Positions 5,431-23,108 of a stretch of 64,000 bases of DNA are shown here, piece by piece (the first letter of the stretch is position 1; each line of letters starts with the position of its first letter). The notes under the pieces are model-generated. The model searched no databases, was not told the DNA's origin, and worked only from the letters and a program-made list of their open reading frames with translations. Origin of the DNA: Longimicrobiales bacterium (GTDB lineage: Bacteria; Gemmatimonadota; Gemmatimonadetes; Longimicrobiales; Gaopeijiaceae); the NCBI GenBank assembly GCA_963667485.2, contig CAXXDD010000001.1:913773-977772 (forward strand), in the 5' to 3' direction. The position numbers and the translations under genes were made by a program.

Positions 5431-6973
5431 GGGTTGCCTTCTCCTGTTGTTCCGGCGGGAGCCCAGTTCCTGGCATACCATTTCCTGCGGTTTCAAGCTC
5501 CCCTGCAACCGCCTGAAACGCCTCCAGCGCCGCCTCCAGGTCCTCCACTATCTCCGCCGCCAGCACCTCGGGCTCGGGCAGGTTCTCGCTGTCCTCAAGC
5601 GCGCTGTCCTTGAGCCAAAGCAAGTCCAGGTTCAGCTTTTCGCGCTTGGCCAGTTCGTCATACTCGAACGCCCGCCAGCGGCCGCCCTCGTGCTCCGCGC
5701 TCCACGTCGCCTCCCTCCTGTGGCGTTCCCCCGGCCGGTAGCAGGTAACGAAGTCGTCCAGGTCGGCGCGCCGGAGCGGCTTCATCTTGAGCGTGAAGTG
5801 CTTGTTGGTCCGCAGGTCGTAGACCCACAGCCGCTCCGTCCACGGCTTCTCTCGCGCGGGCTTCGCGTCGAAGAACAGGACGTTCGCCTTCACCCCCTGA
5901 GCGTAGAAGATCCCGGTCGGGAGCCGGAGAAGCGTGTGCACGTCGAACGCTTGGAGCAGGTTCCGCCGCACCGTCTCGCCCGCGCCGCCCTCGAACAGGA
6001 CGTTGTCGGGAACCACAATGGCGCAGGTGCCGTGCGGCCGGAGAAGCGTCTTCACGTGCTGGAGGAAGTTGAGTTGCTTGTTCTTGGTGCTCGTCCAGAA
6101 GTCCTGACGCTCGTAGGTGTCGGACTCCGTCTCCAGTTCGCCCTCCTCGTTCACGATCCGGACGCTGCTCTTCTTGCCGAACGGCGGGTTGGTGAGCACC
6201 ATCGAGAAACGCTCTCCGGGGTCGTTCGCCAAGCTGTCCACTCCCGACCGGATCGGGGGCTCGTCCGGGGCGACTCCGTGCAGGTACAGGTTCATGATGC
6301 AGAGCCGGGCGGTCGCGGGCACGATCTCCCAGCCGTGTACGAAGCTCGTCCGCAGGTGCGCCTTCTGGTCGGGGTCCAGCGTGCTCCCGTGCTCGCGGAC
6401 CACATGATCGTGTGCGGCGAGCAGGAAGCCGCCCGTGCCGCAGGCGGGATCGCACACGGTGTCGTCCGGCCCCGGACGAACGCAGTCCACGACGGCCTTG
6501 ATGAGTTCGCGGGGCGTGAAGTACTGGCCCGCGCCCTTCGGCGACTCCTGGGCCGACTTGGCCAGCAGGCCCTCGTAGATGTCGCCCTTCACGTCCGCGC
6601 GCATCGACATCCAGTCCTCGGGGTCGATCAGGTCGACGATCAGGCGCTTCAGCGTCGCCGGGTTCTGTATCTCCTGACGGGCCTTCTTGAAGATCTCGCC
6701 GAGCATCCCGCCCCGCTTGGGAAGCTCCGTCAGGATGCTTCGGTAATGCGTTTCAAGCTCCTCACCATCGCGGGCGAGGAGGCTCGGCCAGTCGAGTCCC
6801 TCCGGCACGATGGGAGGCCGGTTCCACGGCGGCTGGGTCCTCTGGTGCGCCATCTTCAGGAACAGCAGGAATGTGATCTGTTCCGTGTAGGCCATGTAGG
6901 ACAGGCCATCGTCGCGGAGCAGGTGCGCGAAGCTCCACGCCTTGTTGACGATCTGCCGGGTGTCGTTCGGCAT
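5423..6973 (-). CDS. hsdM: Type I restriction-modification system, N6-adenine DNA methyltransferase subunit
   Basis: It has an HsdM N-terminal domain (IVNKAWSFAHLLRDDGLSYMAYTEQITFLLFLKM), an AdoMet motif DPACGTGGF and the catalytic LTNPPFGKK. Confidence 0.93.
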   Translation of the reverse strand: MPNDTRQIVNKAWSFAHLLRDDGLSYMAYTEQITFLLFLKMAHQRTQPPWNRPPIVPEGLDWPSLLARDGEELETHYRSILTELPKRGGMLGEIFKKARQEIQNPATLKRLIVDLIDPEDWMSMRADVKGDIYEGLLAKSAQESPKGAGQYFTPRELIKAVVDCVRPGPDDTVCDPACGTGGFLLAAHDHVVREHGSTLDPDQKAHLRTSFVHGWEIVPATARLCIMNLYLHGVAPDEPPIRSGVDSLANDPGERFSMVLTNPPFGKKSSVRIVNEEGELETESDTYERQDFWTSTKNKQLNFLQHVKTLLRPHGTCAIVVPDNVLFEGGAGETVRRNLLQAFDVHTLLRLPTGIFYAQGVKANVLFFDAKPAREKPWTERLWVYDLRTNKHFTLKMKPLRRADLDDFVTCYRPGERHRREATWSAEHEGGRWRAFEYDELAKREKLNLDLLWLKDSALEDSENLPEPEVLAAEIVEDLEAALEAFQAVAGELETAGNGMPGTGLPPEQQEKATHD

Positions 6974-8490
6974 CAGGGGATTCGGCTCTTGAGTTGGAGT
7001 CTCGGCTTCGCCGGGCGGCGCTTTCTCCGCTTCCGTTCCGATTTCCGCTCGGCCCGGATGCGCTCCAGCAGGACGGACGCAGGTTCGTCGGTGGGATCCT
7101 GCGGTACCAGCCGGCCCTCGAACGCGCGCTTCAGGATGGACTGGCGGAGGGCAGTCGTTTGGTGCAGCAGATCGGCGATCGCGCCGGTCGAGCGCATGAC
7201 CGCATCGCTCGCGTCATCAGATCGGCGAATGATCTCGCCCAGCTCCGCCTCCGGGGGCAACGGGAACGGAAAACCGCGCAGCTTCGTCCCGTTCACGTTT
7301 GCTTGACCAACCTGCTGGGAGACCACTGAGGCGATCCATGCTCGTCCCCAAGATGAATTCAAAGCGTTGGCCACAACCGGAGACAGTCGCGCGCGCAGAA
7401 TCCTCACGCTGATGAGATAGGACGCGAAAGAACACGGATCTGGACGACCTCTGTAGACTGCCGTCTTACCCACCAGTTCGGCGCTATTCGTGCGATTGAA
7501 TAGCAGATCACCGTCCCTGAGCAGGAGCTTCGGAAACTCACGGTGATCGAATGGAAGGTACTTGAGATCTTGGAGATCGAGTGCGCCTTGCTGGATGTTC
7601 CCCATGCGCAGCACCGGTACGCCTTCTGGCTCTGGGGAAGTCTTCGCCGAAGATCCGTATTGCACGGTCAGGCTCACCTGATCCACCGTCGCCCAGCACC
7701 ACCCTTCCGGCAGTTCCGGCAACCCGCTCGCGTCCGGTGCCACCGGCTCCTTGTACTTCGCCTTCCAGTTGCGCGGCGGTTTCCTCCCCTGCGCCTCGAA
7801 CTTTGCGAGTTGCTCCGCCTCCCAGCGCTTCCGCCGTTCGGCCAGGATGCGGCGAAGCAGTTGCTCGCCGGTCTCCTCGGGCGGATTTTCTTTCCTCCAC
7901 TGTTCGGTCAGCCTGCCCTCGACCGCCGACTTGAGGACGGAAGCCCGGTAGCGCTCCAGATTGGCCTCCGCCCGCTTCAGCGCGGCGACGCCCTCGTCCA
8001 GTTCGGCGAACAAGGACTCTATCCTGGCGACGATTCGACGCTGCTCAGGAAGGGGGGCAAGCCCGAAGCGATACTTGCCAAGCCGCTGGGCGGAAACGCG
8101 AGGCAGGTTGACACCAGCCGAGTTGGCACTCGCATACGCGACGAGATCGCTGGACGACAACAGGTGCATCAGGAGCGCGTTTGCCAACGCGGAAGACTCC
8201 TTGAACACGAGGAACTCGGTCGAGCCGACGCCGGACTCGTGGGGGCGGACCACCTTGTTCAGGTAAGGCCGCAGTCGTCCGTACAGCACGTCGCCGGAGG
8301 AAAACGCGGCGACGGTGCTCTTCACTCCTTCGGAGCATCGGTGGCCGGTGATTCGGTTGGTACCGCTCGCGACATGTTCGAGGCCGATGTACTTGGTCGG
8401 GCCTATCGCCGCGGGCCGTACTCGGGCTCGTGACTCGCGCCACACCTCACCCAACTCCACCTCCGCCCAACCCGTCGGCAACGCGCTCAT
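6973..8490 (-). CDS. hsdS: Type I restriction-modification system, specificity subunit
   Basis: There are two target-recognition domains separated by coiled-coil conserved regions (LPEQRRIVARIESLFAELD; ALRQSILKRAFEGRLV). ATGA overlaps occur at both ends, with the hsdR stop and the hsdM start. Confidence 0.9.
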   Translation of the reverse strand: MSALPTGWAEVELGEVWRESRARVRPAAIGPTKYIGLEHVASGTNRITGHRCSEGVKSTVAAFSSGDVLYGRLRPYLNKVVRPHESGVGSTEFLVFKESSALANALLMHLLSSSDLVAYASANSAGVNLPRVSAQRLGKYRFGLAPLPEQRRIVARIESLFAELDEGVAALKRAEANLERYRASVLKSAVEGRLTEQWRKENPPEETGEQLLRRILAERRKRWEAEQLAKFEAQGRKPPRNWKAKYKEPVAPDASGLPELPEGWCWATVDQVSLTVQYGSSAKTSPEPEGVPVLRMGNIQQGALDLQDLKYLPFDHREFPKLLLRDGDLLFNRTNSAELVGKTAVYRGRPDPCSFASYLISVRILRARLSPVVANALNSSWGRAWIASVVSQQVGQANVNGTKLRGFPFPLPPEAELGEIIRRSDDASDAVMRSTGAIADLLHQTTALRQSILKRAFEGRLVPQDPTDEPASVLLERIRAERKSERKRRKRRPAKPRLQLKSRIP

Positions 8491-11291
8491 GCCGCCAGCC
8501 TCTCGTTCAACTCGGCCAGCACGCCGTCCAGATCCTTGCCGAACGCGCGCCATGCGCCACCGAGCCCGCCCCACTGGTTGAACGGCACGTCCTCGAAGTC
8601 CTCCCGTTCTATCGCAAGACTGGAAGCGATATGGTCCTTGATTGCGTCCAGCCACCGCCGCTGCTCGGCGGCGAACTCGTGCCCTCCGCGCGCCTTCTCC
8701 TCCAGCCATGCCTGGTAGCGCGCCTCCACCTGCTCGGCCACGGGAACGAGCGCCTCCTCGGGCTTGATCGCGTGCCTCACGATGGCGACCAGATCGACGA
8801 GCGCATTCCCGCCCCTGCCCGTGACCTTCTCCGGCTCCAGCGCCTCGTAGAGCCGCCACAGACCGTTGGCCGGGTCGTGAAGGCTGACCGGCGGATTCCG
8901 CAGCGCGTCCCTGAGCTCCTTGACGTGGCGGTAGCGAAGCCCGGCCCGGTACGGCTGGCTGTACAGGATCCGGAGCGCCTCGATCTCGTCCTTGTTGTCT
9001 TCGACGAACCGCTGGAAGTCGTCCAGCTTCGAGCGCGCGCTCTCGACCGCCGCCTCGCTGTGCCCGAAGTCGAGCAACACGTCGATGGCCGCCTCGTCGA
9101 TGATCTGGTAGAGGCTCTGATGGATCTCGATGATCGCCTTCCTGAGCCCCGGCTTGGTGAACGGCTTGAGGGCCTCGGCCATGCGCTCGCGCTCCACGGC
9201 GTCCAATTGCTGCGAGGTCGGATCGTCGTCTTCGGCCAGCCCGTACCGCTCCACCGCCGCGTCGTGGGTCAGGTGCGGGTCGATGCTGTCGAGCAGAGTC
9301 CCGGTCAGCGCCGCCAAGCTCAGTCCGTCCGCCTCCTTCGCGATCCGCGCCGCCTGCGTCTCGTCCACCCGCCTTCCCAGGCGCGCCAGACGCGACGCGA
9401 GACTCGACACCAGATCCGCGTGCGCCATCCCCATCGCGGCGCTCTGAAGCAACTTCTTCAAGCTGGCCGAAGGCTTTCGCTCCAGAGGAGGCGATAGCGT
9501 CTTGTCGCGCTCGCAGACGCCGACCGCATCGACGATCACGAAATGGGTCTTGTGCTCCGCGTCCGGGGTGACCTTCCGTAGATCGCCCGGCTTGATGACG
9601 CGCACGCCCCGGCCCTTCATCTGCTCGAAGTAGCCGGCCGAATTCACGTTGCGCATGAAGAGCAGGCATTCGAGCGGCTTCACGTCGGTGCCCGTCGCGA
9701 TCATGTCCACGGTGACCGCGATGCGCGGATGGTAGGAGTTGCGGAAACTGCTGAGCCGGTCCTCCGGCGACGCGCCCGTCGTCTTCGAGGTGATCTTTCG
9801 GCAGAACTCGTTGCCCTTGCCGAACTCCTCCTTGAGGATCTTCACGATGTCGTCGGCGTGGCTGTCGTTCTTCGCGAACACGAGCGTCTTGGGGACTTCC
9901 TTTCGGCCTGGGAAGATCTTCGTGAACAGATGGTCGCGGAAGGTGCGCGCGACGAGCCGGATCTGGTCCGGGGCAACCACGTCGCGGTCGAGTTGGTTCG
10001 CCGTGTACGTGAGGTCGGCCCCGAGCTCCGCGTGCGTCGTCTTGCGGGTCCGCCGGTCGCGCCGGGGCACGTACGCGTCGGCCTCGGCCAGCACGGCTCC
10101 GCCCTCCTCGGAGATTTTCGTCTTGATGCGGTAGATGTCGTAGCCGACGTTGATCCCGTCCGCCACCGCCCTGGTGTGCGAGTAGTCCTGCACGACGTTG
10201 TTGCGGAAGAACCCGATGGTCTGCGGACTCGGGGTCGCGGTCAGGCCGATGAGGAAAGCGTCGAAGTACTCGACGACCTGCCGCCAGACGTTGTAGATCG
10301 AGCGGTGGCACTCGTCGATGACGATGAAGTCGAAGTGCTCGATCGGGAGACCCGGCGTGTATTCGACCGGAACGGGCTCGCCGCCGAGCGGGCCGCTTGA
10401 CTCGAACAGCGACTCGTCTTCGTTGGCGGGGTCGTACTCGGGATCGCCCTTCAGCATCGAATAGAGGCGCTGGATGGTCGTGATGACCACCTTGCTGGAT
10501 ACCTTGATCGCGTTGCCGCGCAGCCGTTGGACCACGAACTCGTCGGCGAAGGCGTACGCGGAGCCGGTATCCCGGAACTCCTGGAACTCTCTCAAGGTCT
10601 GTTTGCCGAGGTTGTTGCGGTCCACGAGGAAGAGGATGCGCTCGGCCTTGGCGTGCTTGATGAGCCGGTGGCAGGCCGTGACCGACGTGAACGTCTTCCC
10701 GCTGCCCGTCGCCATCTGGATGAGGGCGCGTGGGCGGCCGTGGGCCAGCGACCGTTCAAGCTCCTGGATCGCCTCGTACTGCACGTCCCATAGGCGCCCC
10801 TTGGGGAGCTCCGGCATCTCTCGGAGCAAACCGCGCAACTGTGCCGGACCGAGGCCTTGCAGCCGCAGTAGTTCCTCCGGCCGGTGGAATGTAAAGATCT
10901 CCCGGCTGCGCGGTTCCGGATCGAGTCCGTTGGTGAACTGCGTGACCTCGCCGGTGGACTCGTAGGCGAACGGGAGCGGGCGGTTCCAGGCCGGGACCCA
11001 CTTGTCCAGTCCCTCCGTGTACTTCTCGGATTGCGTCAACACGCCCTGAAGCGTGTGCCCGGCGGGTTTGGCCTCGATCACGCCGATGGCCCGTCCGTCG
11101 GCGTAGAGCAGATAGTCGGCAAAGCCGGACTTGATCTCCGCGCCCTGCTTCCACTTCAGCGGATACTCCCGAACGGCCACGCCGCGCGCCGTGTGGATGT
11201 CCATGGACGCGAAGTCCTGAACCGCCCACCCGCAGGCATCGAGTTGCCCGTCGATCTTCTCGCGGGCTCGCTGTTCGGGCGTCAGGGGCAC
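8487..11291 (-). CDS. hsdR: Type I restriction enzyme, R (helicase/endonuclease) subunit
   Basis: The N-terminus reads EQRAREKIDGQLDACGW..FADYLLY..IGVIEAKP (a nuclease motif). Helicase motifs are MATGSGKT, a DEAH-like VIDECHRS and LTATP. It has a GTG start. Confidence 0.9.
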   Translation of the reverse strand: MPLTPEQRAREKIDGQLDACGWAVQDFASMDIHTARGVAVREYPLKWKQGAEIKSGFADYLLYADGRAIGVIEAKPAGHTLQGVLTQSEKYTEGLDKWVPAWNRPLPFAYESTGEVTQFTNGLDPEPRSREIFTFHRPEELLRLQGLGPAQLRGLLREMPELPKGRLWDVQYEAIQELERSLAHGRPRALIQMATGSGKTFTSVTACHRLIKHAKAERILFLVDRNNLGKQTLREFQEFRDTGSAYAFADEFVVQRLRGNAIKVSSKVVITTIQRLYSMLKGDPEYDPANEDESLFESSGPLGGEPVPVEYTPGLPIEHFDFIVIDECHRSIYNVWRQVVEYFDAFLIGLTATPSPQTIGFFRNNVVQDYSHTRAVADGINVGYDIYRIKTKISEEGGAVLAEADAYVPRRDRRTRKTTHAELGADLTYTANQLDRDVVAPDQIRLVARTFRDHLFTKIFPGRKEVPKTLVFAKNDSHADDIVKILKEEFGKGNEFCRKITSKTTGASPEDRLSSFRNSYHPRIAVTVDMIATGTDVKPLECLLFMRNVNSAGYFEQMKGRGVRVIKPGDLRKVTPDAEHKTHFVIVDAVGVCERDKTLSPPLERKPSASLKKLLQSAAMGMAHADLVSSLASRLARLGRRVDETQAARIAKEADGLSLAALTGTLLDSIDPHLTHDAAVERYGLAEDDDPTSQQLDAVERERMAEALKPFTKPGLRKAIIEIHQSLYQIIDEAAIDVLLDFGHSEAAVESARSKLDDFQRFVEDNKDEIEALRILYSQPYRAGLRYRHVKELRDALRNPPVSLHDPANGLWRLYEALEPEKVTGRGGNALVDLVAIVRHAIKPEEALVPVAEQVEARYQAWLEEKARGGHEFAAEQRRWLDAIKDHIASSLAIEREDFEDVPFNQWGGLGGAWRAFGKDLDGVLAELNERLAA

Positions 11292-11328
11292 GGTCGCATG
11301 TTCCAGTTCGAGTGCGGGGCGCGTTGCG

Positions 11329-11616
11329 TCAGGCCACCGCGAAGCGCTCGACGGCGATCTCCCCGGCGCGGCCTCGGGCCTGCCACAGATCGTACGCCAT
11401 CTGCATCCCGAGCCAGACTTCCGGCGTCGAGCCGAAGGCCTTCGACAGCCGGAGCGCCATCTCGACCGAGACCCCGGTGTGCCCGTTCAACAACTCCGAT
11501 AGCGCCTGCCGGCTGACGCCCAACCCCTCGGCGGCCCGCGTCACGGTCAGCCCCAACGGTTCGAGGCACTGCCGCCTCACGATGCCGCCCGGATGCGGCG
11601 GGTCGTGCATGGCCAT
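11329..11616 (-). CDS. higA: HigA-family antitoxin (XRE HTH)
   Basis: MAMHDPPHPGGIVRRQCLEPLGLTVTRAAEGLGVSRQALSELLNG...EVWLGMQMAYDLW is the typical HigA pattern. Confidence 0.85.
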   Translation of the reverse strand: MAMHDPPHPGGIVRRQCLEPLGLTVTRAAEGLGVSRQALSELLNGHTGVSVEMALRLSKAFGSTPEVWLGMQMAYDLWQARGRAGEIAVERFAVA

Positions 11617-11632
11617 GATCTTCGCTTCTCCT

Positions 11633-11915
11633 TCAATGGTAGTCCACGTAGTCGGCATCGGCCGCCGCGCCGTCCTCGAACCGGAAGGTAACCCGACAGT
11701 TGCCGGACACCGACACCGCGTAATGTCCCTTCAGCCGCCCCCTTGAGCGCGTGCAGCCGGAAGCCCGGAAGGTCCATGCCCTCCGACCCCCGGCTCAAGT
11801 CGAGCGCCGCCAGGATGTCCCGCAGCTTCGCCACATGCTCCGGCGCGACCCGCCGCGCCGTCCGGCCCTCGTAGAGCGCCTTCAGGCCACGGTGGCGGAA
11901 CGATGCGATCATCAT
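11633..11915 (-). pseudogene. higB: HigB (RelE/ParE-fold) toxin interrupted by a 1-nt frameshift in a C5/G5 run (11738-11742)
   Basis: The N-terminal 59 aa read MMIASFRHRGLKALYEGR...DLPGFRLHALKG. After removing one G, the frame reads RLKGHYAVSVSGNCRVTFRFEDGAAADADYVDYH-stop, the canonical HigB C-terminus. The span is 283 nt, which is 3n+1. Confidence 0.8.
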
Positions 11916-12066
11916 CGAAGTCTAGGCTGTCGCCCGCCGGACGACAACCGGCGACGCCTGGCAGCAGGCTGGAATCGGAGCGAACTTGACAAAGAGCCCG
12001 TGCGTAACCGCAAGTTGTTGGTGGACAACGACAAGACTTGGCCACACTTCGAGCGTGGAGAGCGAC

Positions 12067-12396
12067 ATGACCAAAGCCGATCTCGTTGCACAGGCCGCCG
12101 TTGTGGTCGGCCCGAGGGTTACCAAGAAGGACTGCGGGCTAGTGGTGGACGCTTTTCTCGACGCCGTGAAGGACGCGCTCGCACGGGGAGAGGGCATCGA
12201 GATCCGGGGATTCGGGACGTTCAAGGGGCGGCACCGCAAGGCCCGCGCCGCCCGCAACCCCAGGACCGGCGAACCGGTCGAAGTTGCCGCCTGCGCCGTG
12301 CCGGTGTTCCAGCCATCGAGACTCCTCCGCGACCGCGTGGCCCGGGGGCAGGGCTCCACGCCCACCGAGGGCCATCGGATTCTACTAAGCGGCTAG
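12067..12396 (+). CDS. HU/IHF-family DNA-binding protein
   Basis: MTKADLVAQAA...VDAFLDAVKDALARGEGIEIRGFGTFKGRHRKARAARNPRTGEPVEV is the HU/IHF beta-arm motif. GGAG lies upstream of ATG 12067. Confidence 0.85.
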   Translation: MTKADLVAQAAVVVGPRVTKKDCGLVVDAFLDAVKDALARGEGIEIRGFGTFKGRHRKARAARNPRTGEPVEVAACAVPVFQPSRLLRDRVARGQGSTPTEGHRILLSG

Positions 12397-15300
12397 CAGT
12401 CGTCAGTGTCGCGCCGGGAGTAGCCGTGTTTGATAGCCACTTGAACGAGAGCTTCCCGCTTTTCGGACGGTGCCCATCGGAGAGGAGCCAGATGCGCGTC
12501 CTTCGGTGCATGGCGGCGCAGGAGCACGGCGTATAGATCAGGATCGCCGACGACAAGATACCGAAACAACGTCGGGTTGGCGTCCTCCGGGATCGCGCTG
12601 ATCAAGTCTCGGCGATCTTCCAGGTCCAGACTGGCGCTCGCGGTGGAAAGCAATCCTTCGTCCAGCGAAGGTTCCTTGAGGCGTTGGTTGAAGCGAGCCT
12701 GCCATTCCGCAATGGTCAGGTTGGACGAGCCGGCGTCGGAAGCCAAATGCCGCCTTCTTCTGCGGACAGAACTCGCTCGGGCCTCCGACAGGATCCAAGC
12801 ACGCGCGATGCCCGCATTCGCGCGCAACACCTCAGACATCAACCGGTCGTTGCGCCAGGTCACAACGGCGTCCTCCCAAGCAGGGCCAAGCCGTCCACCC
12901 GGTCGGCGCTTTCCGTTGGCTGCCCAGATGCCGCCCGCAACAGCCCCGCGGACGGTTGGTTCCGGATGCCGCAGGAGGCGGTGCTTCCATTCGCGGGCTA
13001 CAGTGTTCCAGTCGATCGAGTGAGACAGCATATCCTCGGCCCAGCCTTGCACCTGCTGCATGATGCGATCGACGATCGCTGCGGGGAGCCCGGCAAAGCA
13101 CAAACCAACACGCACACACGGCACTGTGTATCGGTCATCCCTTGCAACGGCTTCCCAAGCCCGTTCGCTCGCTGCCGGGATCACGGCAGCGGCTTCCAGA
13201 AACGGACCGACCCACGCCGGCGGCGCTTCGCGATCCACCAGTTCTTCGAGCCACGGCCCTGGGTCGTTTACGCGCTGAGCAAGATGCATGGGAATGTGTT
13301 CCAGCACGCCTGGGTAGTTGTGCCCCATCAGTTCTCGTTGGCGTTCGTAGTGCATCAGGCGCGTGACCACAGCCGCTGGCCCTTCGGGTCGCCATTTCCG
13401 ACCAAATACGCGCGCGGCCGCATCGAGTGGACCTCGAGACCAGTTCCGCGAATCGAGTTCTGCCGGGTTGGGGAACAGCTGGCACAGAGTTGCATCACCG
13501 ACCTCAGGCAGCCTCACTTCCAGTCGGCGCTCGGTCGCGAGCCTATGCGCCCAGAGCAGGATGCCGGGTTCGTTTCCGGCCAGGTCGAGAACTGTGGGCA
13601 ACACCCGTCGGACCAGGTCGCGCGCCGCGAGCTTGGTCTCGTCCAACTCCTTGCCTGCGCGGGGTCCGATGAGCCAGTCGTGGACCACGTTCCGCGCACA
13701 AGACACGCCGGATCGGCCCAGACCGCGAAAAACAGGCAGCGCCAAGGCCCAGAGATCTTCAATCTCCCGGACTTCGGACGCCGAAAGCGAGCCGAAACCA
13801 ATTGAGATCTTGGTGATCTCTATCGGATCATCGCGCCACGTCTCGAAGGACAACGAGAAGGCAGCAGCGAGGAGTTCGGTTACCACCTCTCGACTTGCTT
13901 GGTTCAAATCAACGCTGGCGGTCCGTTCGGCCAGTGCGCGCACAAGGAACTCGCGGCGGTCCACGGCGTCACCGCCTGGCTGGCTGGCCAGGATCCATGT
14001 GCGGATCGATTTGGTAAGGGCATCGGCCTCGCCTGGATGGTCAAGAGCTCTGGAAACGAGTTCTCCCAGAAACCGGTCGGGCGCCTGTCTGAGCGCCGCG
14101 CCGGATATCAGAACCGTCCGGTCCGGATGTTTGTCCAGAATCCAGCTTGCTGCTTCTGCACCTGTGCGTGCGTACGATGACCACAGGGTGCTCCCGACGT
14201 GGGGGCTCTCCTGCTTCCTCAACCGCGTTCTTATCAAGTCATGTAGCTGCCTCTGGGTCTCATGGCCCAGCGATGGTCCCCCCCTCGCGAGTACGTCGAT
14301 CAGCGTCTCGGTACACGCTGCGGCATCTTGTACGCGGTCAATCGCCGGTTCAAGTGTCAGGCTGGATGCGCCCGAGAAGAAAGTGCGCTTCACGAGGGCA
14401 TGCCTCAGATGCCAGGGATGGATCGCAGCGGCGCCCCCTCGAATGTCGCGCAGGATACCGGTGCCGGATGCTTGCAGCAGAGATTGCCGCACGTTCGTTT
14501 CAGCCGTGTGCAACGCTTGAGCCGCCGCAGCAAGTCTCATGCCAGCGGTCCCCCCCAGCGCGAAGGCCGCCAGATGATCGAGCTCTGATCCGGCCAGCCG
14601 GGCGTCCTTCTTCACTTCGGAGAGCAACAGCTTGCCCGTGGCCAGATCGGCAAGGTCGCCCAGGCTGGCGTATCGGGCCAAAGTGACCGCCAGTCCCGGC
14701 CGAACATGCCCGCCCTGGTGGTATTCCGCAGTCAGTGGATCATCGGTCGGCACGTTGTCGACGCTCTGGTTGAGGATCTCGCCAACCAGATGGTCGGAGA
14801 ATCCGGGATGCACTTGCCGTACGATCTTTTCTGCCGTCTCTCGGTCGAGTCCTCTCACTGGCAAGACTCCTTCCGGCGGGCAATGAATTTCCCGCCTTAC
14901 TTCTCCTTCGCGGCTGGGCCAGGTTGTGGCGACGATCGAAAACTCCGCACCGATCTCGGCGCGCAGCCGGGTCAGGCTAAGGATGAGCGAGTCGCTCAGG
15001 TGGGCATCGTCTATGAAGATTCGGGGCGGGCGCTGCGCTCGATACGCGTCGGCGATCCGCCGCATGTTGCCGGGGGCCACGACCATCGCGCCCCCGGTGC
15101 AGCTCACGATCGAAAAAAGGCCGCCGCCCTCCCCAGCGAGCGCTTCGAGGAGCGCCGTTTTCCCGACCCCGGGTTGTCCGACGACGACAACGTCTCCGCT
15201 GGCTCGGCGGAGCCAGCCCATTTCCCGCTCTCGGCCCACGAGGTCGAGCGTCAGGCGAGATCCGGCCTTGCCTGGTAGAGCGGAGAGGGCTGGCGGGTCG

Positions 15301-15740
15301 CCGGTCAGGCCGAGGAGTTGCTTGCGCCACATCGAGTCCCGATACAAACGACCCACGAAGTCGTGGCGGTCATGGATGTTCCGGAGCGTGAAGCCGAGTT
15401 CGCGGGCGCGCTTCTCAAGATTGCGGCGCTTGGGTGGAGTGAGTGATCGAGGTGTGGCCAGGACCGCCTCGCGTGCCGACCCGCCGGTCCGCCCATAAGA
15501 ACTCAGGTTTCGTTTGAGGTTGCCCAGAACGTCCTCGCTGGTTGTGGCGATCAGGGGGAGGGGCGATCCCGTCCTAATCGAAATCGAACCGTCCATGCCA
15601 CCGTCGTGCCCGCCCGTGATCGGCACGATCCCCGGATAAACGTCCCGCAACAAATCCACGGCGCATCGTTCGAAGAGATCCGCATCAAGCCGCTCGCCCA
15701 AGCCCTCTTCTATGCTGCGGTACAGCGGATCCCTGACCAT
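12393..15740 (-). CDS. Large (1115 aa) protein: Mrr/PD-(D/E)xK-like N-terminus + P-loop NTPase + about 750-aa alpha-helical C-terminus (STAND/Avs-like architecture)
   Basis: The N-terminus reads LFERCAVDLLRDVYPGIVPITGGHDGGMDGS (Mrr-cat-like FE...DGGxDG). It has Walker A VVVVGQPGVGKTALL and Walker B PRIFIDDAH. The remainder is Leu/Ala/Arg-rich with no recognisable enzymatic motif. Confidence 0.65.
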   Translation of the reverse strand: MVRDPLYRSIEEGLGERLDADLFERCAVDLLRDVYPGIVPITGGHDGGMDGSISIRTGSPLPLIATTSEDVLGNLKRNLSSYGRTGGSAREAVLATPRSLTPPKRRNLEKRARELGFTLRNIHDRHDFVGRLYRDSMWRKQLLGLTGDPPALSALPGKAGSRLTLDLVGREREMGWLRRASGDVVVVGQPGVGKTALLEALAGEGGGLFSIVSCTGGAMVVAPGNMRRIADAYRAQRPPRIFIDDAHLSDSLILSLTRLRAEIGAEFSIVATTWPSREGEVRREIHCPPEGVLPVRGLDRETAEKIVRQVHPGFSDHLVGEILNQSVDNVPTDDPLTAEYHQGGHVRPGLAVTLARYASLGDLADLATGKLLLSEVKKDARLAGSELDHLAAFALGGTAGMRLAAAAQALHTAETNVRQSLLQASGTGILRDIRGGAAAIHPWHLRHALVKRTFFSGASSLTLEPAIDRVQDAAACTETLIDVLARGGPSLGHETQRQLHDLIRTRLRKQESPHVGSTLWSSYARTGAEAASWILDKHPDRTVLISGAALRQAPDRFLGELVSRALDHPGEADALTKSIRTWILASQPGGDAVDRREFLVRALAERTASVDLNQASREVVTELLAAAFSLSFETWRDDPIEITKISIGFGSLSASEVREIEDLWALALPVFRGLGRSGVSCARNVVHDWLIGPRAGKELDETKLAARDLVRRVLPTVLDLAGNEPGILLWAHRLATERRLEVRLPEVGDATLCQLFPNPAELDSRNWSRGPLDAAARVFGRKWRPEGPAAVVTRLMHYERQRELMGHNYPGVLEHIPMHLAQRVNDPGPWLEELVDREAPPAWVGPFLEAAAVIPAASERAWEAVARDDRYTVPCVRVGLCFAGLPAAIVDRIMQQVQGWAEDMLSHSIDWNTVAREWKHRLLRHPEPTVRGAVAGGIWAANGKRRPGGRLGPAWEDAVVTWRNDRLMSEVLRANAGIARAWILSEARASSVRRRRRHLASDAGSSNLTIAEWQARFNQRLKEPSLDEGLLSTASASLDLEDRRDLISAIPEDANPTLFRYLVVGDPDLYAVLLRRHAPKDAHLAPLRWAPSEKREALVQVAIKHGYSRRDTDDC

Positions 15741-15889
15741 CCTCAGCCTCCGATCAGCCAGGCCAGCAGGCCGGTTGGAACCGCAACGAGTTCGGGATCG
15801 TTCAAGTCCAACGCACTTCGTGTGGCCATTACTCCGCGCCGTCTTGACGCGGCCAAGGTGCGTTGTCCGCCGATCTCGGCGACGCAGTA

Positions 15890-17585
15890 GCCCGCATTTC
15901 TCACACAGGCCAGTCAGAGGCCTGAGGGGAGGGGTTGAGGGTGTGACCGGGGGTGGCCAAGCGTGTCGGAGTGAGGGACAGCAGGTCCCTGGCGGGTTTT
16001 TCGAAGCAGCGAACGAAGAGATTGACGGGCTGAAGAGGCCCTGATTGGTTCCAGGACGCAGTGGTCCTTGGAACGTGGTGGCTGGGAGGGTGCTCGGGAG
16101 CGGCCGGGGAGCCTACCCCGGTAGTCGAGCGTGGACCCGTGCGAAGGCTGCGGCGGAGGGGTGCGCGGAGTCCATGGCGACCTTGACCCGGCGAACCGAG
16201 ACCATGACGCGGGCACCGATCTTGAGGAGCCTGAGCCGGAGCGTTCCCGCGGTGGCGCGGGCGAGCGGGGTGCCGTGAAGCGCTTGCCTGATGGCATCGA
16301 AGAGGATCGACGCGAAGGCGGAGAAGAGGAGCCGGAGCTGGTTGGCGGCGAAGCAGGTGGCCGAGGTCCGGTCGGAGAAGAGATCGAGCTGCTGCTCCTT
16401 GATCGTGTTCTCCATGTTGCCCCGTGCGCAGTAGAGGCGCTCGTACACGGTCCGCGCCGAGAAGGTGTCGGCGGGCAGCGAAGTGACCACGAAGCGGGGG
16501 TTCGCCTTGTCCGCCAGATGCTCGGCCTTCGCCACGACGCGGCGCTTACAGGACCAACTGGTGAGGGTGGCGTAGGGGAACTCCGTGAACCGGCGGGCCG
16601 GCCGGCCTTTCTTCTCCGCTTCGGCCGCGGCGTCGTCGAGTAGCCATACGATGCGCTCGACGAGCCGCGAGTTCCTTGCCAGCCCGATGACATAGTCCAC
16701 GTCGTTGTCCTTGCACCACGCCATCAGTTCCTCGCGAGCATACGCGGAATCGGCACGGAGCAGGATCTTCAGCCAGGGCCACTCCTGGCGGAGCCGGGCG
16801 ACGATGCGGCCGAGCGGTCCGGTCACCCCTCCGGCCGGGTCGGCGTTGCCCGGCCTGAGCTGTGCGAAGAGCGGGCGTCCGCCACAGGTGATGTACAGCG
16901 GCAGGAAGCAGTAGTGGTTGTAGTAGCCGTGGTAGAACCGGCCCTCCTGGCTGCCGTGCACCGCAACGTCGGTCGAGTCGATGTCCACCACCAGCCGCGA
17001 CGGGGGCAGGCCCTGCCAGGAGTCGATGAACGACTCGACCAGCACGTCCTGAAGCTTCTCGGGGTCGTGGTCGATCTTGGCGTAGCGGCTCGGCTTGCCA
17101 CCGGCAGGTGCGTGCTCGAGCCGGCTCAGCGTGCTCTTGCCCGCCAGTGGTGCACACCCTTTCCGGCGTGCCTCGAGCTTGCCCGACAGCAGTGCCAGCA
17201 GCGGGTCGCGCCGCAGGTCGTCGTGGTCGTTGAGGTCGTCGTACCCCAGGGCAATGCCGGCGATGCGCTGTGCCACCAGTGTCCGCACCGAATGTTCCGT
17301 AAGGCGCGGATCGCGGTGGTCCGTGAAGCCTGCGGCAACCCGGTCGAAGAGCCCGGTGGAACGGTCCGCCTGGCGAAGGAGCAGCGCCCCGCCGTTCGAA
17401 GTGATCGATCCGCCGTCGAACGCGGCGGTCACCCTGCGGCCTTGGCACCCTTGAAATGCGAACGAAAGCGGTTTACACTGTGTCAGCATCGGTCCTCCTT
17501 GGGGAATCATGTCAAGTTCATGCCCTACATAAACTTAACACCCCTCGGAGGCCGGTGCTCTCTTATAGGTGTGAGAAATCCGGGC
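15890..17585 (-). mobile_element. IS1380-family insertion sequence (about 1.7 kb) with 17-bp terminal inverted repeats
   Basis: IRL is gcccgcatttctcacac (15890-15906). IRR is gtgtgagaaatccgggc (17569-17585), which matches 16/17 as a reverse complement. The repeats enclose a single DDE transposase gene. Exact ends and the target duplication are uncertain by 1-2 nt. Confidence 0.8.
16113..17489 (-). CDS. IS1380-family DDE transposase
   Basis: MLTQCKPLSFAFQGCQGRRVTAAFDGGSITSNGGALLLRQADR...LGYDDLNDHDDLR is the typical IS1380 N-terminus. AAGGAGG lies 4 nt upstream of ATG 17489. Confidence 0.88.
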   Translation of the reverse strand: MLTQCKPLSFAFQGCQGRRVTAAFDGGSITSNGGALLLRQADRSTGLFDRVAAGFTDHRDPRLTEHSVRTLVAQRIAGIALGYDDLNDHDDLRRDPLLALLSGKLEARRKGCAPLAGKSTLSRLEHAPAGGKPSRYAKIDHDPEKLQDVLVESFIDSWQGLPPSRLVVDIDSTDVAVHGSQEGRFYHGYYNHYCFLPLYITCGGRPLFAQLRPGNADPAGGVTGPLGRIVARLRQEWPWLKILLRADSAYAREELMAWCKDNDVDYVIGLARNSRLVERIVWLLDDAAAEAEKKGRPARRFTEFPYATLTSWSCKRRVVAKAEHLADKANPRFVVTSLPADTFSARTVYERLYCARGNMENTIKEQQLDLFSDRTSATCFAANQLRLLFSAFASILFDAIRQALHGTPLARATAGTLRLRLLKIGARVMVSVRRVKVAMDSAHPSAAAFARVHARLPG

Positions 17586-17926
17586 TAGGGCGTCACATGA
17601 TTGTGGTTCATGCCTGCAATGTAGCAGGTGGCCCGGCACCGGTCTTGCGCCCACAAGGAGTGCCAATCGCCTGCGGGCGCGGGTTCAGCAGGTCGGCGCG
17701 GTCATATCGTGGAACTACGATTTCCGCTCACCCGAGGAGCGGTAGACGTTACCGAGTAGAGAGATCGTCAATCGGCCTTGGCATGGCCGGGTTCCGCACG
17801 TTCGCGGCGGTGTCTTCTTGTCCGCGAGGTACCGCGGCAGCAACGGCTGAGATTTCCCGCCATTCAATAGCGGTTTTCTCGCTACTCGCAGTGGTCGGAG
17901 TCCGGCGCGGCCCAACGGCAGGAAAC

Positions 17927-17994: not shown

Positions 17995-19050
17995 TACCCC
18001 GTGTAATACACCGGGGCTGGCGAGGGGTGGCCCTGCCCCCCTTCGATCCCCCCGAGAATCGCGCTCCCTTGGAGGTCGCGAATGAGGGCGCCGCCCCCTT
18101 TCCCCCGTGTCGGTGCGGCGTGATGCCTGAGCGCCGCGCCGCCCGTCGTCACCGCCCGCATATCGGCGGCCGAGTCCGCCACAGGGTTGTCGCCGAGGCG
18201 AAGGCGTACCCCGATGGCGTCTCTACCTCCAACGTCCTCCCCCGTGGTGGCGTTCGAGCCGTCTTTGTCGGCGGACCCGTTTTGAGCGCCGAATGTGGGT
18301 GTTGGTGGCAAGTCCTGCGTGTCCGGCTCACTTTGAGGGTCGCCGGACACGAAATCGCCGTTCGGCCGGACACGGCCCCGGCCGTCCATGTCGCTGGTGC
18401 GCTTGCGTTTGCACCACGGCCAGCGGAGCGCCGACGCCAGTCCGCGCTCCTTGGACGTGGCTGGGAGTGACCCCCATCTCGGCAAGACCTCGATTGGCGC
18501 CGGGGAGGATGGAGCCGGACAGCCCCATCCGCCCCGCCGCTGCGGGGTCACTCCCAGCCAACAGTCCTTCCCGGAAGGGTGTCGAGCGCCGCTTCGAGCT
18601 GGAGGACCCGTTGCCCGACCACTTGGCCGCCGGGCTGTCCGACATCGCCGGCCAAGACCGGGAACGCGCCCGTTCCGGCTCGCCGTTTGGCCTTCCCGCA
18701 CGGGATTGCTGGCCCGTAGCGACCTCCCGCGGAGGATGGCATGGCGTGTCCATGCCAATCCTCCCCCATGGCACGCCAGGTGCCCAAAGTGGGGGGTCGC
18801 TACGGCCACGCCCGCAAGCTCCCGCGCGACACGGCCGCGTCTGCGGCCATGTCGCAACCGAAAGGCGGGCCGCGACATGCGGAATCATGAGCGTGTCCGC
18901 TGAAGGGACGCTTTCGTGTCCGCCCACCTCCAACGTCGGACGGACACCCACGCTACGGCCCCGGCGACAGGGTTCCGGGCCGGGGACCTCCTTCCGGGCG
19001 ACTGACACACGCACTGGCGGAGACGGCTTCTCTCGGCGAAGTTTCCTTCG

Positions 19051-19067
19051 CGCAGATCGTGCAGTCC
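19051..19067 (+). repeat. Third copy of the 17-nt core motif cgcagatcgtgcagtcc, ending 17 nt upstream of the integrase ATG
   Basis: Exact 17-nt match to 17926-17942. The flanks are not similar. Confidence 0.85.
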
Positions 19068-19084
19068 ATCACGCGAGGAATCGA

Positions 19085-20239
19085 ATGATGGCACGCACGA
19101 AACGAAAGCGCCGGAGCTACGGCGCCGGTGAATGGGGCCGGAACCGGGTCCGGGTGTTTCCGGATCCGAAGACCGGCATGTTCCAGATCGAGTGGCGCGA
19201 CAACGGGCGAAGGCTGACCCGGTCGCTGCAACACCGTGACTGGCGGCGCGCGAAGAGGCAGGCGGATCAGTTCGCCGCCGGGTTCATCGACGCGCCCGAC
19301 GGCAATGCGGAGCCCGAGCCGCTCACGCTGGACAAGCTGTTTGAAATCTACGGTGAAGAGGTGACGCCCACCAAGGCGGAGGCGTCCCAGCGGGCCGACC
19401 GGGCCGCGACGAGGATGTTCCTCGGGTTCTTCGGACGAGACCGCAAGCCTTCAACGCTCTCCCGGCGCGACTGGGACCGGTTCATCCGGGCGCGGCGCGC
19501 GGGCAAGGTCGGTGCGAGCGGCAAACCGGTGTCCGACGCGACGATCGAACACGATCTGAAGTTCCTGATCGCCGTGTTCAACTGGGCCGGCAAGTCGAAG
19601 GACGAGGAGGGCCGGCTGCTCCTCGGCTCGAACCCGCTGAAGGGTCTGAAGACGCCCACGGAGAAGAACCCGACCCGGGTCGTGTTGTCCGAGGAGGAAT
19701 ACCAGGCGCTTCTCGGGGTGTCCCGGGAGGTGGACTGGCGCTTCCACGTCGCGCTCGTGCTGGCGCACGAGACCGGGCACCGAATCGGGGCCATCCGCCA
19801 CCTCAGGTGGCCGGATATCGACCTTGAAGCCCGAGCCATCCAGTGGAGGGCCGAACACGAGAAGACCGGCTACGAACACCGGACTCCGATGACGGCCGAG
19901 GCGGTCGCCGTCCTTGAGCAGGCGCGAGAGCGGAGCGCCGGGATTGAGGTTGCTCCGGTGCTCCCCGCACCACGAGATCCGTCGCGGTGCGCGGGCCGGA
20001 CGCTGGTGCGCCTCTGGTGGAACCGAGCCCAGAAGCTCGCGGGGCTCGAACCCAAGCGCGGACGGGGCTGGCACTCGTTGAGGCGCAAGTTCGCCAGCGA
20101 CCTCATGGACCAGCCGCTCAAGGTCCTCTGCGACCTCGGAGGCTGGAAGACCGCCAAGACGGTGCTCCAGTGTTATCAGCGAGCCGACGAGGGACAGCTT
20201 CGGAAGGCACTGGAAGCCCGCCCGAGACCTCGCGGCTGA
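19085..20239 (+). CDS. Tyrosine recombinase / phage-type integrase (apparently intact)
   Basis: It starts at MMARTKRKRRSYG. It has a SAM-like N-terminal domain and a catalytic region LAHETGHRIGAIRHLRW ... GWHSLRRKFASDL ... GGWKTAKTVLQCYQ (R..HxxR..Y). Confidence 0.88.
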   Translation: MMARTKRKRRSYGAGEWGRNRVRVFPDPKTGMFQIEWRDNGRRLTRSLQHRDWRRAKRQADQFAAGFIDAPDGNAEPEPLTLDKLFEIYGEEVTPTKAEASQRADRAATRMFLGFFGRDRKPSTLSRRDWDRFIRARRAGKVGASGKPVSDATIEHDLKFLIAVFNWAGKSKDEEGRLLLGSNPLKGLKTPTEKNPTRVVLSEEEYQALLGVSREVDWRFHVALVLAHETGHRIGAIRHLRWPDIDLEARAIQWRAEHEKTGYEHRTPMTAEAVAVLEQARERSAGIEVAPVLPAPRDPSRCAGRTLVRLWWNRAQKLAGLEPKRGRGWHSLRRKFASDLMDQPLKVLCDLGGWKTAKTVLQCYQRADEGQLRKALEARPRPRG

Positions 20240-20310: not shown

Positions 20311-20347
20311 AAGATACCAACCTGATGCCGCATGACGTAACGTCAGG
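20311..20347 (+). repeat. att-like repeat, copy A (20-nt identical core ccgcatgacgtaacgtcagg containing the palindrome TGACGT-A-ACGTCA)
   Basis: 33/37 identical to 30563-30599, and the last 20 nt are identical. Similarity stops abruptly at the 3' end of the core. It lies about 70 nt after the integrase stop. Confidence 0.8.
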
Positions 20348-20363
20348 CCTTACCTTCTCAGCC

Positions 20364-21143
20364 ATGGAAACCCAACAACTCCACACGGTCGGCCAGGTCG
20401 CCACCCTGGCCCGCGTCACCGTGCGCACCCTGCACCACTACGACCGCATCGGCCTGCTCGAGCCCTCGGGTCGTTCCGAGCAGGGCTACCGCCTCTACGA
20501 CTACGGCGACCTCGAGCGCCTGCGCCAGATCCGGCTGCTGCGCGAACTGCGCTTCAGCCTGGACGCCATCGGCCAGATGCTCGACGCCCCGGCCTACGAC
20601 CGGCGGAGCGCGCTGGAGGCGCAGCGGGAATTGCTCAGGGAGCGCCAGGAGAGGACAGACAGTATCATTCGCGGGGTCGACCGGGCCCTGACGGCGATGG
20701 AAGAGGAGACGGAAATGGACAGGACGGAGATGTTCGAAGGACTGGAAGAGTTCGACCACGAGCAGTACCAGGACGAGGCCGAGCGACGCTGGGGCCACAG
20801 CGACGAGTACAAGGAGTCGATGCGCCGCACCCGCCGCTACGGCAAGGGCGACTGGGCCCGGATCAAGAAAGAGGGCGAGGGCGTGGTGGCCAGGCTGGCC
20901 GACCTGCTGGCCGAGGGCGCCCAGGCCGCCGGCCGCGCCGCCATGGATCTGGCCGAGGAACACCGCTGTCATATCGACCGCTGGTTCTACCCCTGCAGCC
21001 ACGGCATGCACCGCAACCTGGCCGAGATGTACACGGCCGATCCGCGCTTCGAAGAGTACTTCGAGAAGCGGGCGAAGGGCCTGGCAGCGTTCGTCCAGGA
21101 CGCGATCCGGGCGAACGCGGCGCGCCGGAGAAACCGCCAGTGA
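20364..21143 (+). CDS. MerR-family transcriptional regulator with a TipAS-like C-terminal domain
   Basis: HTVGQVATLARVTVRTLHHYDRIGLLEPS is a MerR HTH. The C-terminus reads RWGHSDEYKES...WFYPCSHGMHRNLAEMYTADPRFEEYF (TipAS/Mta type). Confidence 0.88.
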   Translation: METQQLHTVGQVATLARVTVRTLHHYDRIGLLEPSGRSEQGYRLYDYGDLERLRQIRLLRELRFSLDAIGQMLDAPAYDRRSALEAQRELLRERQERTDSIIRGVDRALTAMEEETEMDRTEMFEGLEEFDHEQYQDEAERRWGHSDEYKESMRRTRRYGKGDWARIKKEGEGVVARLADLLAEGAQAAGRAAMDLAEEHRCHIDRWFYPCSHGMHRNLAEMYTADPRFEEYFEKRAKGLAAFVQDAIRANAARRRNRQ

Positions 21144-23057: not shown

Positions 23058-23108
23058 GGTGACCGGTAGCAGCCGCGGCGACCAGCGGCGGCGATTCCCT
23101 CCTGGCTT

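Follow-up and report, generated by a model that had tools for sequence, protein, structure and literature searches.

A candidate single-chain antiviral STAND NTPase with a lysine-less Mrr-type head beside a type I restriction-modification operon in a Longimicrobiales bacterium

We describe a gene from Longimicrobiales bacterium (Gemmatimonadota) that probably encodes a single-chain antiviral STAND (Avs-like) pattern-recognition NTPase of an uncharacterised family. The gene lies at 12393-15740 on the minus strand of a 64,000-nucleotide stretch (NCBI GenBank assembly GCA_963667485.2, contig CAXXDD010000001.1, positions 913,773 to 977,772); "the window" is the whole of this stretch. Translation and an AlphaFold2 (AF2) model present the gene as complete, with 3 parts in 1 chain: a restriction-endonuclease-like (REase-like) head, a STAND NTPase, and an α-solenoid. 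We give this reading a probability of roughly 0.68. It is carried by the order and folds of the domains, the conservation of the NTPase and of the head residues E24, D46, and D50, the swapping of heads among relatives, the defence and restriction-modification (R-M) contexts of the family, and the selection regime. By analogy with Avs3, Avs4, and Avs7, the protein may also sense a ligand, oligomerise, and act as a nuclease.

The gene is a single, uninterrupted open reading frame (ORF) of 1115 codons plus stop, beginning with ATG. A sequence-only reading of the same DNA had proposed a 1115-aa protein with an Mrr-like nuclease motif, a P-loop NTPase, and a helical C-terminus; translation recovers the protein and every motif string quoted for it. 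LFERCAVDLL occupies residues 22-31 and GGHDGGMDGS residues 43-52, with a spacer of 11 residues and not the 12 that had been counted. IATTSED is found at residues 64-70, the Walker A string VVVVGQPGVGKT at residues 184-195, and the Walker B string RIFIDDAH at residues 240-247. In a family alignment of 113 sequences, G188, G191, G193, K194, and D245 are invariant, and F23, E24, D46, G48, D50, G51, T66, T67, D244, and H247 are conserved in at least 90% of members; the pattern is therefore real and not a product of chance.

Profiles, the alignment, and AF2 place a P-loop nucleotide-binding domain (NBD) at residues 165-297 (14850-15248; this and all further parts of the gene are on the minus strand). 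It contains Walker A GQPGVGKT (residues 188-195; 15156-15179), Walker B FIDDAH (residues 242-247; 15000-15017), and the stretch LVGRERE (residues 167-173), in which G169, R170, and E173 are conserved in 96%, 100%, and 94% of the family alignment. By sequence, these are the marks of a STAND P-loop: hhGRExE, Walker A, and a Walker B with 2 acidic residues. The AF2 model, built on the family alignment, has a mean predicted local distance difference test (pLDDT) of 85.7 and a predicted template modelling score (pTM) of 0.69. Its secondary structure, together with Foldseek, assigns residues 298-460 (14361-14849) to a helical domain followed by a winged helix. Helices fill residues 300-380, with a conserved RPGLA motif (347-351) inside the helical domain; they are followed by helices at 384-395, 403-409, and 414-424, and by a β-hairpin at 430-440. 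The modelled three-helix bundle and β-hairpin of residues 384-440 form a winged helix, which the sequence-only reading had suggested looking for after the NTPase. The remainder, residues 461-1115 (12396-14360; AF2 and Foldseek), is modelled as an all-α solenoid with a β-hairpin insertion at 631-651 and is the putative sensor. It had been described as helical and rich in Leu, Ala, and Arg; it is almost wholly helical in the model and contains 12.8% Ala, 11.8% Leu, and 11.1% Arg.

Structure and profile searches converge on the same core. The top Protein Data Bank (PDB) matches of the whole model in Foldseek are the STAND-TPR protein 6mfv (E 1.2e-6) and the SIR2-STAND protein EfAvs5 (9jap, E 1e-4). 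Plant and animal NLRs rank lower, namely RPP1 and NAIP/NLRC4, as do the entries 7dfv and 8fvu. The tail, for which a check for TPR or HEAT repeats had been suggested, matches importin and HEAT solenoids as well as TPR-STAND proteins, and the NBD matches AAA+ proteins. In Pfam, the window protein matches AAA_16 (E 0.0012; 19.8 bits, below the 32.6 cut-off), as well as NACHT (E 0.0088) and nSTAND3 (E 0.052), both below their curated cut-offs. Across 42 family members, AAA_16 is matched by 37 (best 7.7e-7), nSTAND3 by 18, and NACHT by 12, all sub-threshold. The STAND profiles AAA_16 and NACHT, which the sequence-only reading had proposed to search, are thus matched consistently across members, but for the window protein itself they stay below the curated cut-offs. 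Pfam AAA (PF00004) does exceed its 21.2-bit cut-off, with 28.8 bits, over residues 185-247 and profile positions 2-67 of 131. PDB sequence matches to ClpB, ClpC, FtsH, and p97 likewise stay within some 40-65 residues that begin at the GRExE motif and end with Walker B; the other PDB sequence matches obtained with the protein, family, or head profile (PDE5, uL10) were set aside as noise. We rejected a full classical AAA+ module because PF00004 is covered only in part and because a winged helix, not a lid, follows the NBD. Short Walker-region matches, the winged helix, and the STAND matches in Foldseek argue for a STAND core, and we conclude from sequence and model that the core is a STAND-type module of NBD, helical domain, and winged helix, not classical AAA+.

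The N-terminal head, residues 1-145 (15306-15740), is a predicted Mrr-type REase-like domain, as judged by AF2, Foldseek, PADLOC, Pfam, hhalign, and the alignment. Its modelled topology is α-α-β-[loop 44-57]-β-α-β-α-β-α, of the αβββαβ type; GGHDGGMDG lies in the loop, the one part of the head that is modelled with low confidence. Modelled in isolation, the head reaches a pLDDT of 82. The PADLOC profile Aga_REase-TIR-PNTD1-PNTD2 matches 30 of 32 head sequences (best E 3.8e-7); in the window head, residues 18-132 align with profile positions 8-123 (E 0.0024). The profile mREase_IV matches 4 sequences. Pfam Mrr_cat matches 14 of 32, all below its gathering cut-off (best E 8.2e-4); the window head itself has no Pfam match at E ≤ 1. 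The closest PDB neighbour of the isolated head in Foldseek is chain B of 8DGF, the EcAvs4–portal complex (prob 0.98, query TM-score (TMq) 0.51, 134 columns, E 0.034, with the aligned Avs4 residues not given by Foldseek). This entry is labelled 'EcAvs4-Mrr-portal' in later literature by its depositors (bioRxiv 10.64898/2026.08.25.746987). EcoT38I and MUS81-EME1 rank lower. Among viral models (BFVD), 4 phage 'Restriction endonuclease' proteins are among the top matches, at TMq 0.33-0.44, with 3 of them at 0.42-0.44. Finally, hhalign aligns the head profile with the catalytic half of EcoKMrr (P 7.5e-4), with FE, G-x-D-G-G-x-D-G, and V-x-x-T-(T/S) collinear. The 5 independent lines agree on an Mrr-type REase fold and none is strong singly (E 4e-7 to 0.09), a weak but convergent case from sequence and modelling that favours the Mrr-like head first proposed from motifs.

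The active site is atypical. In the 32 head sequences, which represent 4 phyla, only 5 polar residues never vary: E24, D46, D50, T66, and N74. The V-Q217-A-K219 of Mrr corresponds to (I/V)-x-T66-T67-x in the family; read by eye, the invariant T66 stands opposite Q217 and the variable residue 68 opposite K219, and the gapped alignment of hhalign is offset from this by 1 or 2 positions. The (Q/E)xK strand reads L-I/V-x-T-T-x and is devoid of a conserved Lys, Gln, or Glu. By sequence, then, the catalytic D…(Q/E)xK triad is incomplete: the Asp motif GGxDGGMDG is kept and the lysine element is absent. The sequence-only reading had flagged the missing (Q/E)xK in the window protein; the alignment and the comparison with EcoKMrr extend this caveat to the whole family. 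With the acidic metal-binding set retained and the lysine gone, catalysis by a variant site is possible, although the standard motif does not predict it.

The window protein belongs to a family that is large, uniform in predicted architecture, and unnamed. A collection of 5.8 billion proteins holds 172 detectable homologues; those to which a source gives a name are all 'hypothetical', and the organisms named are Candidatus Palauibacter and Longimicrobium, both Gemmatimonadota. The head profile retrieves 885 clusters at E ≤ 0.001, and 479 at E ≤ 1e-30, from 1.84 billion cluster representatives; the family thus comprises at least 885 clusters at 50% identity. Among the best 150 of the 885, most proteins measure about 1000-1170 aa, roughly a fifth measure 177-960 aa and may be fragments, and no architecture other than that of the window protein is seen with the head. 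Full-length relatives in GTDB genomes and JGI metagenomes come from Gemmatimonadota (Longimicrobiales), Myxococcota, and Chloroflexota. Scans of the full protein against Pfam, NCBIfam, and PADLOC v2 returned a partial AAA match and nothing defence-specific, and the earlier suggestion of a new family appears fair: no PADLOC defence model matches at E<=0.01 and no Pfam family covers the protein. A 2026 census by Lee et al. (PMC13581612) counts 589 prokaryotic STAND clades, with a defence association for 198, along with 684 sensor clusters; the family may already sit among the 589, catalogued but unstudied.

Exchange of effector heads on a conserved NTPase-sensor chassis is a hallmark of immune STANDs, and it is seen here. 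Two distant homologues align with the window protein from the linker or NBD to the C-terminus (query residues 147-1111 and 167-1111) and carry other heads. The Chloroflexota homologue has a TIR/SEFIR head (PADLOC bSEFIR, 3.5e-53), and the Planctomycetota homologue has a SMEK_N head (Pfam 2.3e-25; PADLOC Aga_REase 3.5e-18). SMEK is 1 of the nuclease heads of the APAZ partner proteins of short prokaryotic Argonautes (pAgo) (PMC10810196).

Two further homologues are unusual. A Dehalococcoidia homologue (L019, 5977-9411) is split into 2 ORFs of 574 and 555 aa, and is probably a frameshifted pseudogene or an assembly error. The ORF of a Polyangiales homologue (L017, 3202-6900) runs 124 codons further upstream and includes an HTH_3 match (E 4.7e-6); the extension may be a fused Xre-type regulator domain, and an IS66 transposase lies upstream.

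The surroundings of homologues are those of an accessory, island-borne gene. In L037 (1292-10594), a 31%-identical homologue stands in the order hsdM-hsdS-[gene]-hsdR, its start overlapping the end of hsdS by 4 nt. Elsewhere, homologues abut hsdR (L035) or adjoin AbiEii (L042), Schlafen/AlbA_2 (L016 and L054), or serine recombinases and GIY-YIG (L052); in L004 the homologue sits among NERD-kinase, Fic, and other STAND genes. Resolvases and an integrase are also among the neighbours, and a single contig of 2,001,787 bp carries 2 paralogues, P0061 and P0096. Embedding in type I R-M loci has served as the criterion for nominating PADLOC defence candidates (bioRxiv 10.1101/2024.01.29.577857).

The window gene has a comparable setting, in a mobile defence island. 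It belongs to a block of hsdM, hsdS, hsdR, higA, higB, an HU-like gene, and the STAND gene, which bears out the type I R-M system and toxin-antitoxin module reported beside it. Window positions 5489-17644, minus an insertion sequence (IS), recur in a Longimicrobiales metagenome-assembled genome (MAG; loci L002/L007), where they lie beside GmrSD. This relative also preserves the history of a second gene, which, together with the IS, had escaped the sequence-only reading.

In 9 loci (8 of them distinct), a protein of 459-473 aa with AAA_14 and DUF4143 domains is encoded directly upstream of the STAND gene, translationally abutted to it at a distance of 1-4 nt. The STAND proteins of these loci are 35-76% identical to that of the window, and the loci with a record title come from MAGs of Longimicrobiales or other Gemmatimonadota. 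The partner matches PADLOC PDC-S01 at 1e-20 to 1e-21, and its motifs are invariant: Walker A GPRRxGK[ST], Walker B WFxDE, and a canonical PD-(D/E)xK signature with D…ESK (EIDFVG…(I/V)ESKYV). PDC-S01 has been reported as the fourth most common prokaryotic defence candidate, a single-gene one not yet validated experimentally (PMC12988326). In the window, tblastn, a DNA alignment, and the sequence reveal a remnant of this partner at 15746-15889 (minus strand), namely its last ~45 codons (63-68% identity to the partner, E about 1e-10), with its stop at 15743-15745. The remnant ends in …LIGG-TGA, and a GGAGG Shine-Dalgarno sequence at 15747-15751 lies 6 nt before the STAND ATG. From its position, this GGAGG probably supplies the ribosome-binding site of the STAND gene, which could be why the remnant has been retained. 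L002 has the identical truncation point, with the remnant read as a 56-aa ORF, and the truncation marks the left edge of the block common to the two. No such partner was seen beside the relatives examined in other phyla and in metagenomic contigs; the solo state is thus normal for the wider family and the pairing specific to 1 clade.

The IS splits the region of the remnant; it is a 1695-bp element at 15891-17585 (minus strand) with a DDE_Tnp_1_4 transposase (16113-17510, minus strand), 17-nt imperfect inverted ends, and a 3-bp target duplication, CTA. It entered the middle of a short palindrome that L002 keeps unbroken as GACGCC-CTAC-GGCGTC; the window junction reads GACGCC-CTA-[1695-bp IS]-CTA-C-TGCGTC. 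We considered the IS as the cause of the partner truncation and rejected it, because L002 shares the truncation although its insertion site is empty and intact. The shared truncation and the empty site give an order of events: the partner was truncated, the lineages diverged (dS ≈ 0.31), and the IS then inserted in the window lineage.

Sequence divergence between the window and L002 shows how the solo gene has been evolving. The window genes hsdR, hsdM, and higA are 94%, 92%, and 96% identical to their L002 counterparts at the amino acid level, with ratios of nonsynonymous to synonymous substitution rates (dN/dS) of 0.16, 0.11, and 0.07. For the STAND gene, identity is 80% and dN/dS 0.37; dS is similar across all 4 genes. 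The ratio is roughly even across the STAND domains (0.32-0.40) and rises to 0.54 in the last ~215 residues. Pairs of loci that retain the partner have STAND dN/dS values of 0.37 (L008-L009) and 0.27 (L009-L010). Since the value is the same where the partner is kept, fast but constrained evolution is a trait of the family and not decay after loss; decay of a solo gene is accordingly unsupported. The window protein deviates from the family at only 3 sites conserved at 90% or more: P20A, S97P, and G586S.

These observations can be assembled into a mechanism by analogy with known Avs proteins. The C-terminal α-solenoid would bind a phage-derived ligand, and binding would release autoinhibition. 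The NBD, helical domain, and winged helix would then bind ATP and oligomerise, bringing the N-terminal Mrr-like domains together so that the heads could act on DNA and the infection be aborted. In Avs3, Avs4, and Avs7, Cap4 or Mrr heads constitute an active nuclease only in the tetramer (PMC13581612; bioRxiv 10.64898/2026.08.25.746987). The partner was lost ahead of the split between the window and L002 lineages, and the STAND gene has continued solo, as in other phyla.

Several points weigh against an active antiviral role of this kind. DNA cleavage is the weakest step of the analogy: the canonical lysine is missing, no conserved lysine occupies the (Q/E)xK site in the 32 heads or in hhalign under any placement, and the head may for that reason not be a nuclease. 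Every line for the REase fold is individually sub-threshold, with Foldseek E values of 0.012-0.09 and Mrr_cat below its gathering cut-off; the window's own PADLOC head match reaches only E 0.0024, and Foldseek does not report which residues of 8dgf_B align with the head. No PADLOC defence model (v2.0.0, with Avs/AVAST 1-5 included) matches the protein at E<=0.01, the sole match being mad8 at E 0.016. There are also signs that the window copy could be silent or crippled: the partner is lost and the adjoining higB is frameshifted; S97P, in the head, is unique to this copy, the position being Ser in 98% of other members; and ahead of the STAND gene, a promoter scan turned up no σ70-like site.

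The main rival is an obligate two-component system, in which the STAND protein is sensor or adaptor, its head is non-catalytic (used for docking, DNA binding, or oligomerisation), the partner is the executioner, and the window copy is a crippled relic. We regard it as unlikely, though it has substance. The partner stands 1-4 nt upstream in the 9 loci, 8 of them distinct, with its Walker A, Walker B, and D…ESK invariant and its PDC-S01 match at 1e-20 to 1e-21, next to a STAND head that has no catalytic lysine; and in Avs2-trypsin-MBL a STAND protein activates a separate nuclease (bioRxiv 10.64898/2026.08.25.746987). The unique S97P and the adjacent frameshifted higB and IS would suit a relic. 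However, the same lysine-less head occurs with no partner in Myxococcota, Chloroflexota, and metagenomic contigs, in 1 case inside a type I R-M operon. The truncation is common to the window and L002 (dS ≈ 0.31), yet both STAND ORFs are intact and their dN/dS is that of the partner-keepers. E24, D46, and D50 are invariant, which is unexpected for a purely structural module.

A variant of the proposal gives the lysine-less head a working role as a regulated adaptor: the oligomerised STAND protein would recruit or license the separate AAA_14–DUF4143 ATPase-nuclease, and solo copies would use a PDC-S01-like gene encoded elsewhere or a non-canonical E/D/D/T/N active site. We hold this to be slightly less probable again than the obligate pair.

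The 2 remaining explanations are poorly supported. The first, which we consider improbable, would be a signal-transduction STAND of the MalT, AfsR, or LuxR type with no immune role; its degenerate REase-like domain would bind DNA and control neighbouring genes. Many transcriptional regulators belong to AAA_16, the family matched most consistently in Pfam; 6mfv, which leads the whole-model matches, is a generic STAND-TPR protein; the head is missing its catalytic lysine; and defence and non-defence STAND clades are interspersed (PMC13581612). Against these stand the results of the Pfam scan, in which neither a helix-turn-helix nor another known output domain was found in the window protein and its close relatives, the immune effector types, TIR/SEFIR and SMEK nuclease, that take the place of the head in homologues, and the surroundings, which feature R-M, Abi, Schlafen, and mobile elements and lack a conserved target operon. 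The second, a housekeeping chaperone- or protease-type AAA+ ATPase of the Clp, FtsH, or p97 kind, can draw on PF00004 above its cut-off and on PDB sequence matches to ClpB, ClpC, FtsH, and p97, but we dismiss it as very improbable: these matches span only ~40-65 residues (profile positions 2-67 of 131), the NBD is followed by a winged helix and solenoid with no AAA+ lid, the distribution is patchy with varied contexts and 2 paralogues on 1 contig, and the STAND dN/dS is 2 to 5 times that of the neighbours. The sequence-only reading had itself named a housekeeping AAA+ protein lacking a nuclease fold as the contrary outcome; what sequence and model point to instead is a STAND core with an REase-like head, and each element of the nuclease, NTPase, and helical sensor order it proposed has stood up to examination. 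An Avs-like single-chain NTPase is therefore the reading we prefer.

The rest of the block and its flanks complete the picture of the locus. Neighbour annotation and comparison with L002 define the type I R-M operon (5423-11291, minus strand) as hsdR (8487-11291), hsdS (~7051-8490), and hsdM (5423-6973). The HsdS encoded at ~7051-8490 (minus strand) is 46% identical to that of L002 (17268-18812), against 92-94% for HsdR and HsdM; from sequence, the specificity subunit seems to have been exchanged inside an otherwise conserved operon. The toxin-antitoxin pair (11332-11915, minus strand) comprises higA (11332-11616), intact and 96% identical to its L002 counterpart, and the frameshifted higB (11636-11915). 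The frameshift lies near 11727-11743: the match to L002 HigB breaks into 2 high-scoring segment pairs, each in a different frame, and the Pfam match to the window product is limited to the first ~62 residues. An ORF at 11282-11569 was rejected as higA, being in the wrong frame. The HU-like (Bac_DNA_binding) gene at 12067-12372 (plus strand) runs convergently to the STAND gene and belongs to the block common to L002; a 147-aa ORF at 11922-12365 (minus strand) is antisense to it and was rejected as a spurious downstream operon partner. Flanking the block are a gene with AbiJ N-terminal domain 4 (AbiJ-NTD4; 4642-5508, minus strand) and, on the side of the IS, a 648-aa tyrosine integrase (18293-20239, plus strand) and a MerR/TipAS regulator (20325-21143, plus strand). 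On the integrase side, the block common to L002 extends to ~17644. A tRNA scan found no tRNA gene in the window, hence no tRNA-anchored island boundary. L002 carries, in addition, a second, divergent AAA_14+DUF4143 gene (21882-23348, 430 aa), which overlaps the start of a gene for a 1359-aa DUF8371 protein by 13 nt (23162-23174); PDC-S01-like ATPase-nucleases may be recurrently paired with different giant proteins.

If the immune reading is true, it adds a sizeable STAND sensor family, of at least 885 clusters mostly from poorly studied soil and marine phyla, that Pfam and PADLOC have missed. The lysine-less acidic head would then be either a new active-site variant of the PD-(D/E)xK nucleases or a nuclease fold reused as an adaptor. 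The operon of a STAND gene with a PDC-S01-type gene bears on a very abundant defence candidate; should the adaptor reading be true, it would define a new 'sensor STAND + PDC-S01 executioner' system and provide the first functional context for PDC-S01. The window copy, a solo and perhaps weakened allele from a Gemmatimonadota MAG, is of direct use chiefly in pointing to the family.

Several known systems share parts with the family. EcoKMrr and Mrr_cat (PF04471) share with the head the collinear FE…G-x-D-G-G-x-D-G…V-x-x-T-(T/S); unlike them, the head scores below the gathering threshold and has T66-T67-x68 in place of Q217-x-K219 by inspection, and the N-terminal winged-helix DNA-reading domain of EcoKMrr has no counterpart in the window protein. 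The REase-TIR-APAZ proteins of short pAgo systems provide the best sequence-profile match of the family head, but the head alone is held in common, the window protein having no TIR, APAZ, or Argonaute partner. PDC-S01 models match the upstream partner, with its invariant D…ESK, in the 8 distinct loci; PDC-S01 is described as a single-gene candidate, whereas here it shares an operon with a STAND gene and survives in the window only as a remnant. For the paired form, the precedent is Avs2-trypsin-MBL (bioRxiv 10.64898/2026.08.25.746987), where a STAND sensor likewise acts via a separately encoded nuclease; there, however, a protease serves as the head and a metallo-β-lactamase nuclease as the partner, and no homology to either was detected here.

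The closest comparison is with Avs4 (EcAvs4, PDB 8DGF). The window protein differs from it in having no PADLOC defence match at E<=0.01 (mad8, 0.016), in the missing (Q/E)xK lysine, in length (1115 aa against the 1534-residue 8dgf_B chain), and in the AAA_14–DUF4143 partner gene found in 1 clade of its family. The two are alike in their Mrr-type head, their STAND NTPase with winged helix, and their large sensor of α-helical repeats (TPR in Avs4); the isolated window head finds its best structural match in the PDB in a chain of the EcAvs4–portal complex, and both are single genes in defence islands. The family itself is uncaptured by Pfam, NCBIfam, and PADLOC v2, and its design of nuclease head, STAND switch, and repeat sensor is the known design of Avs.

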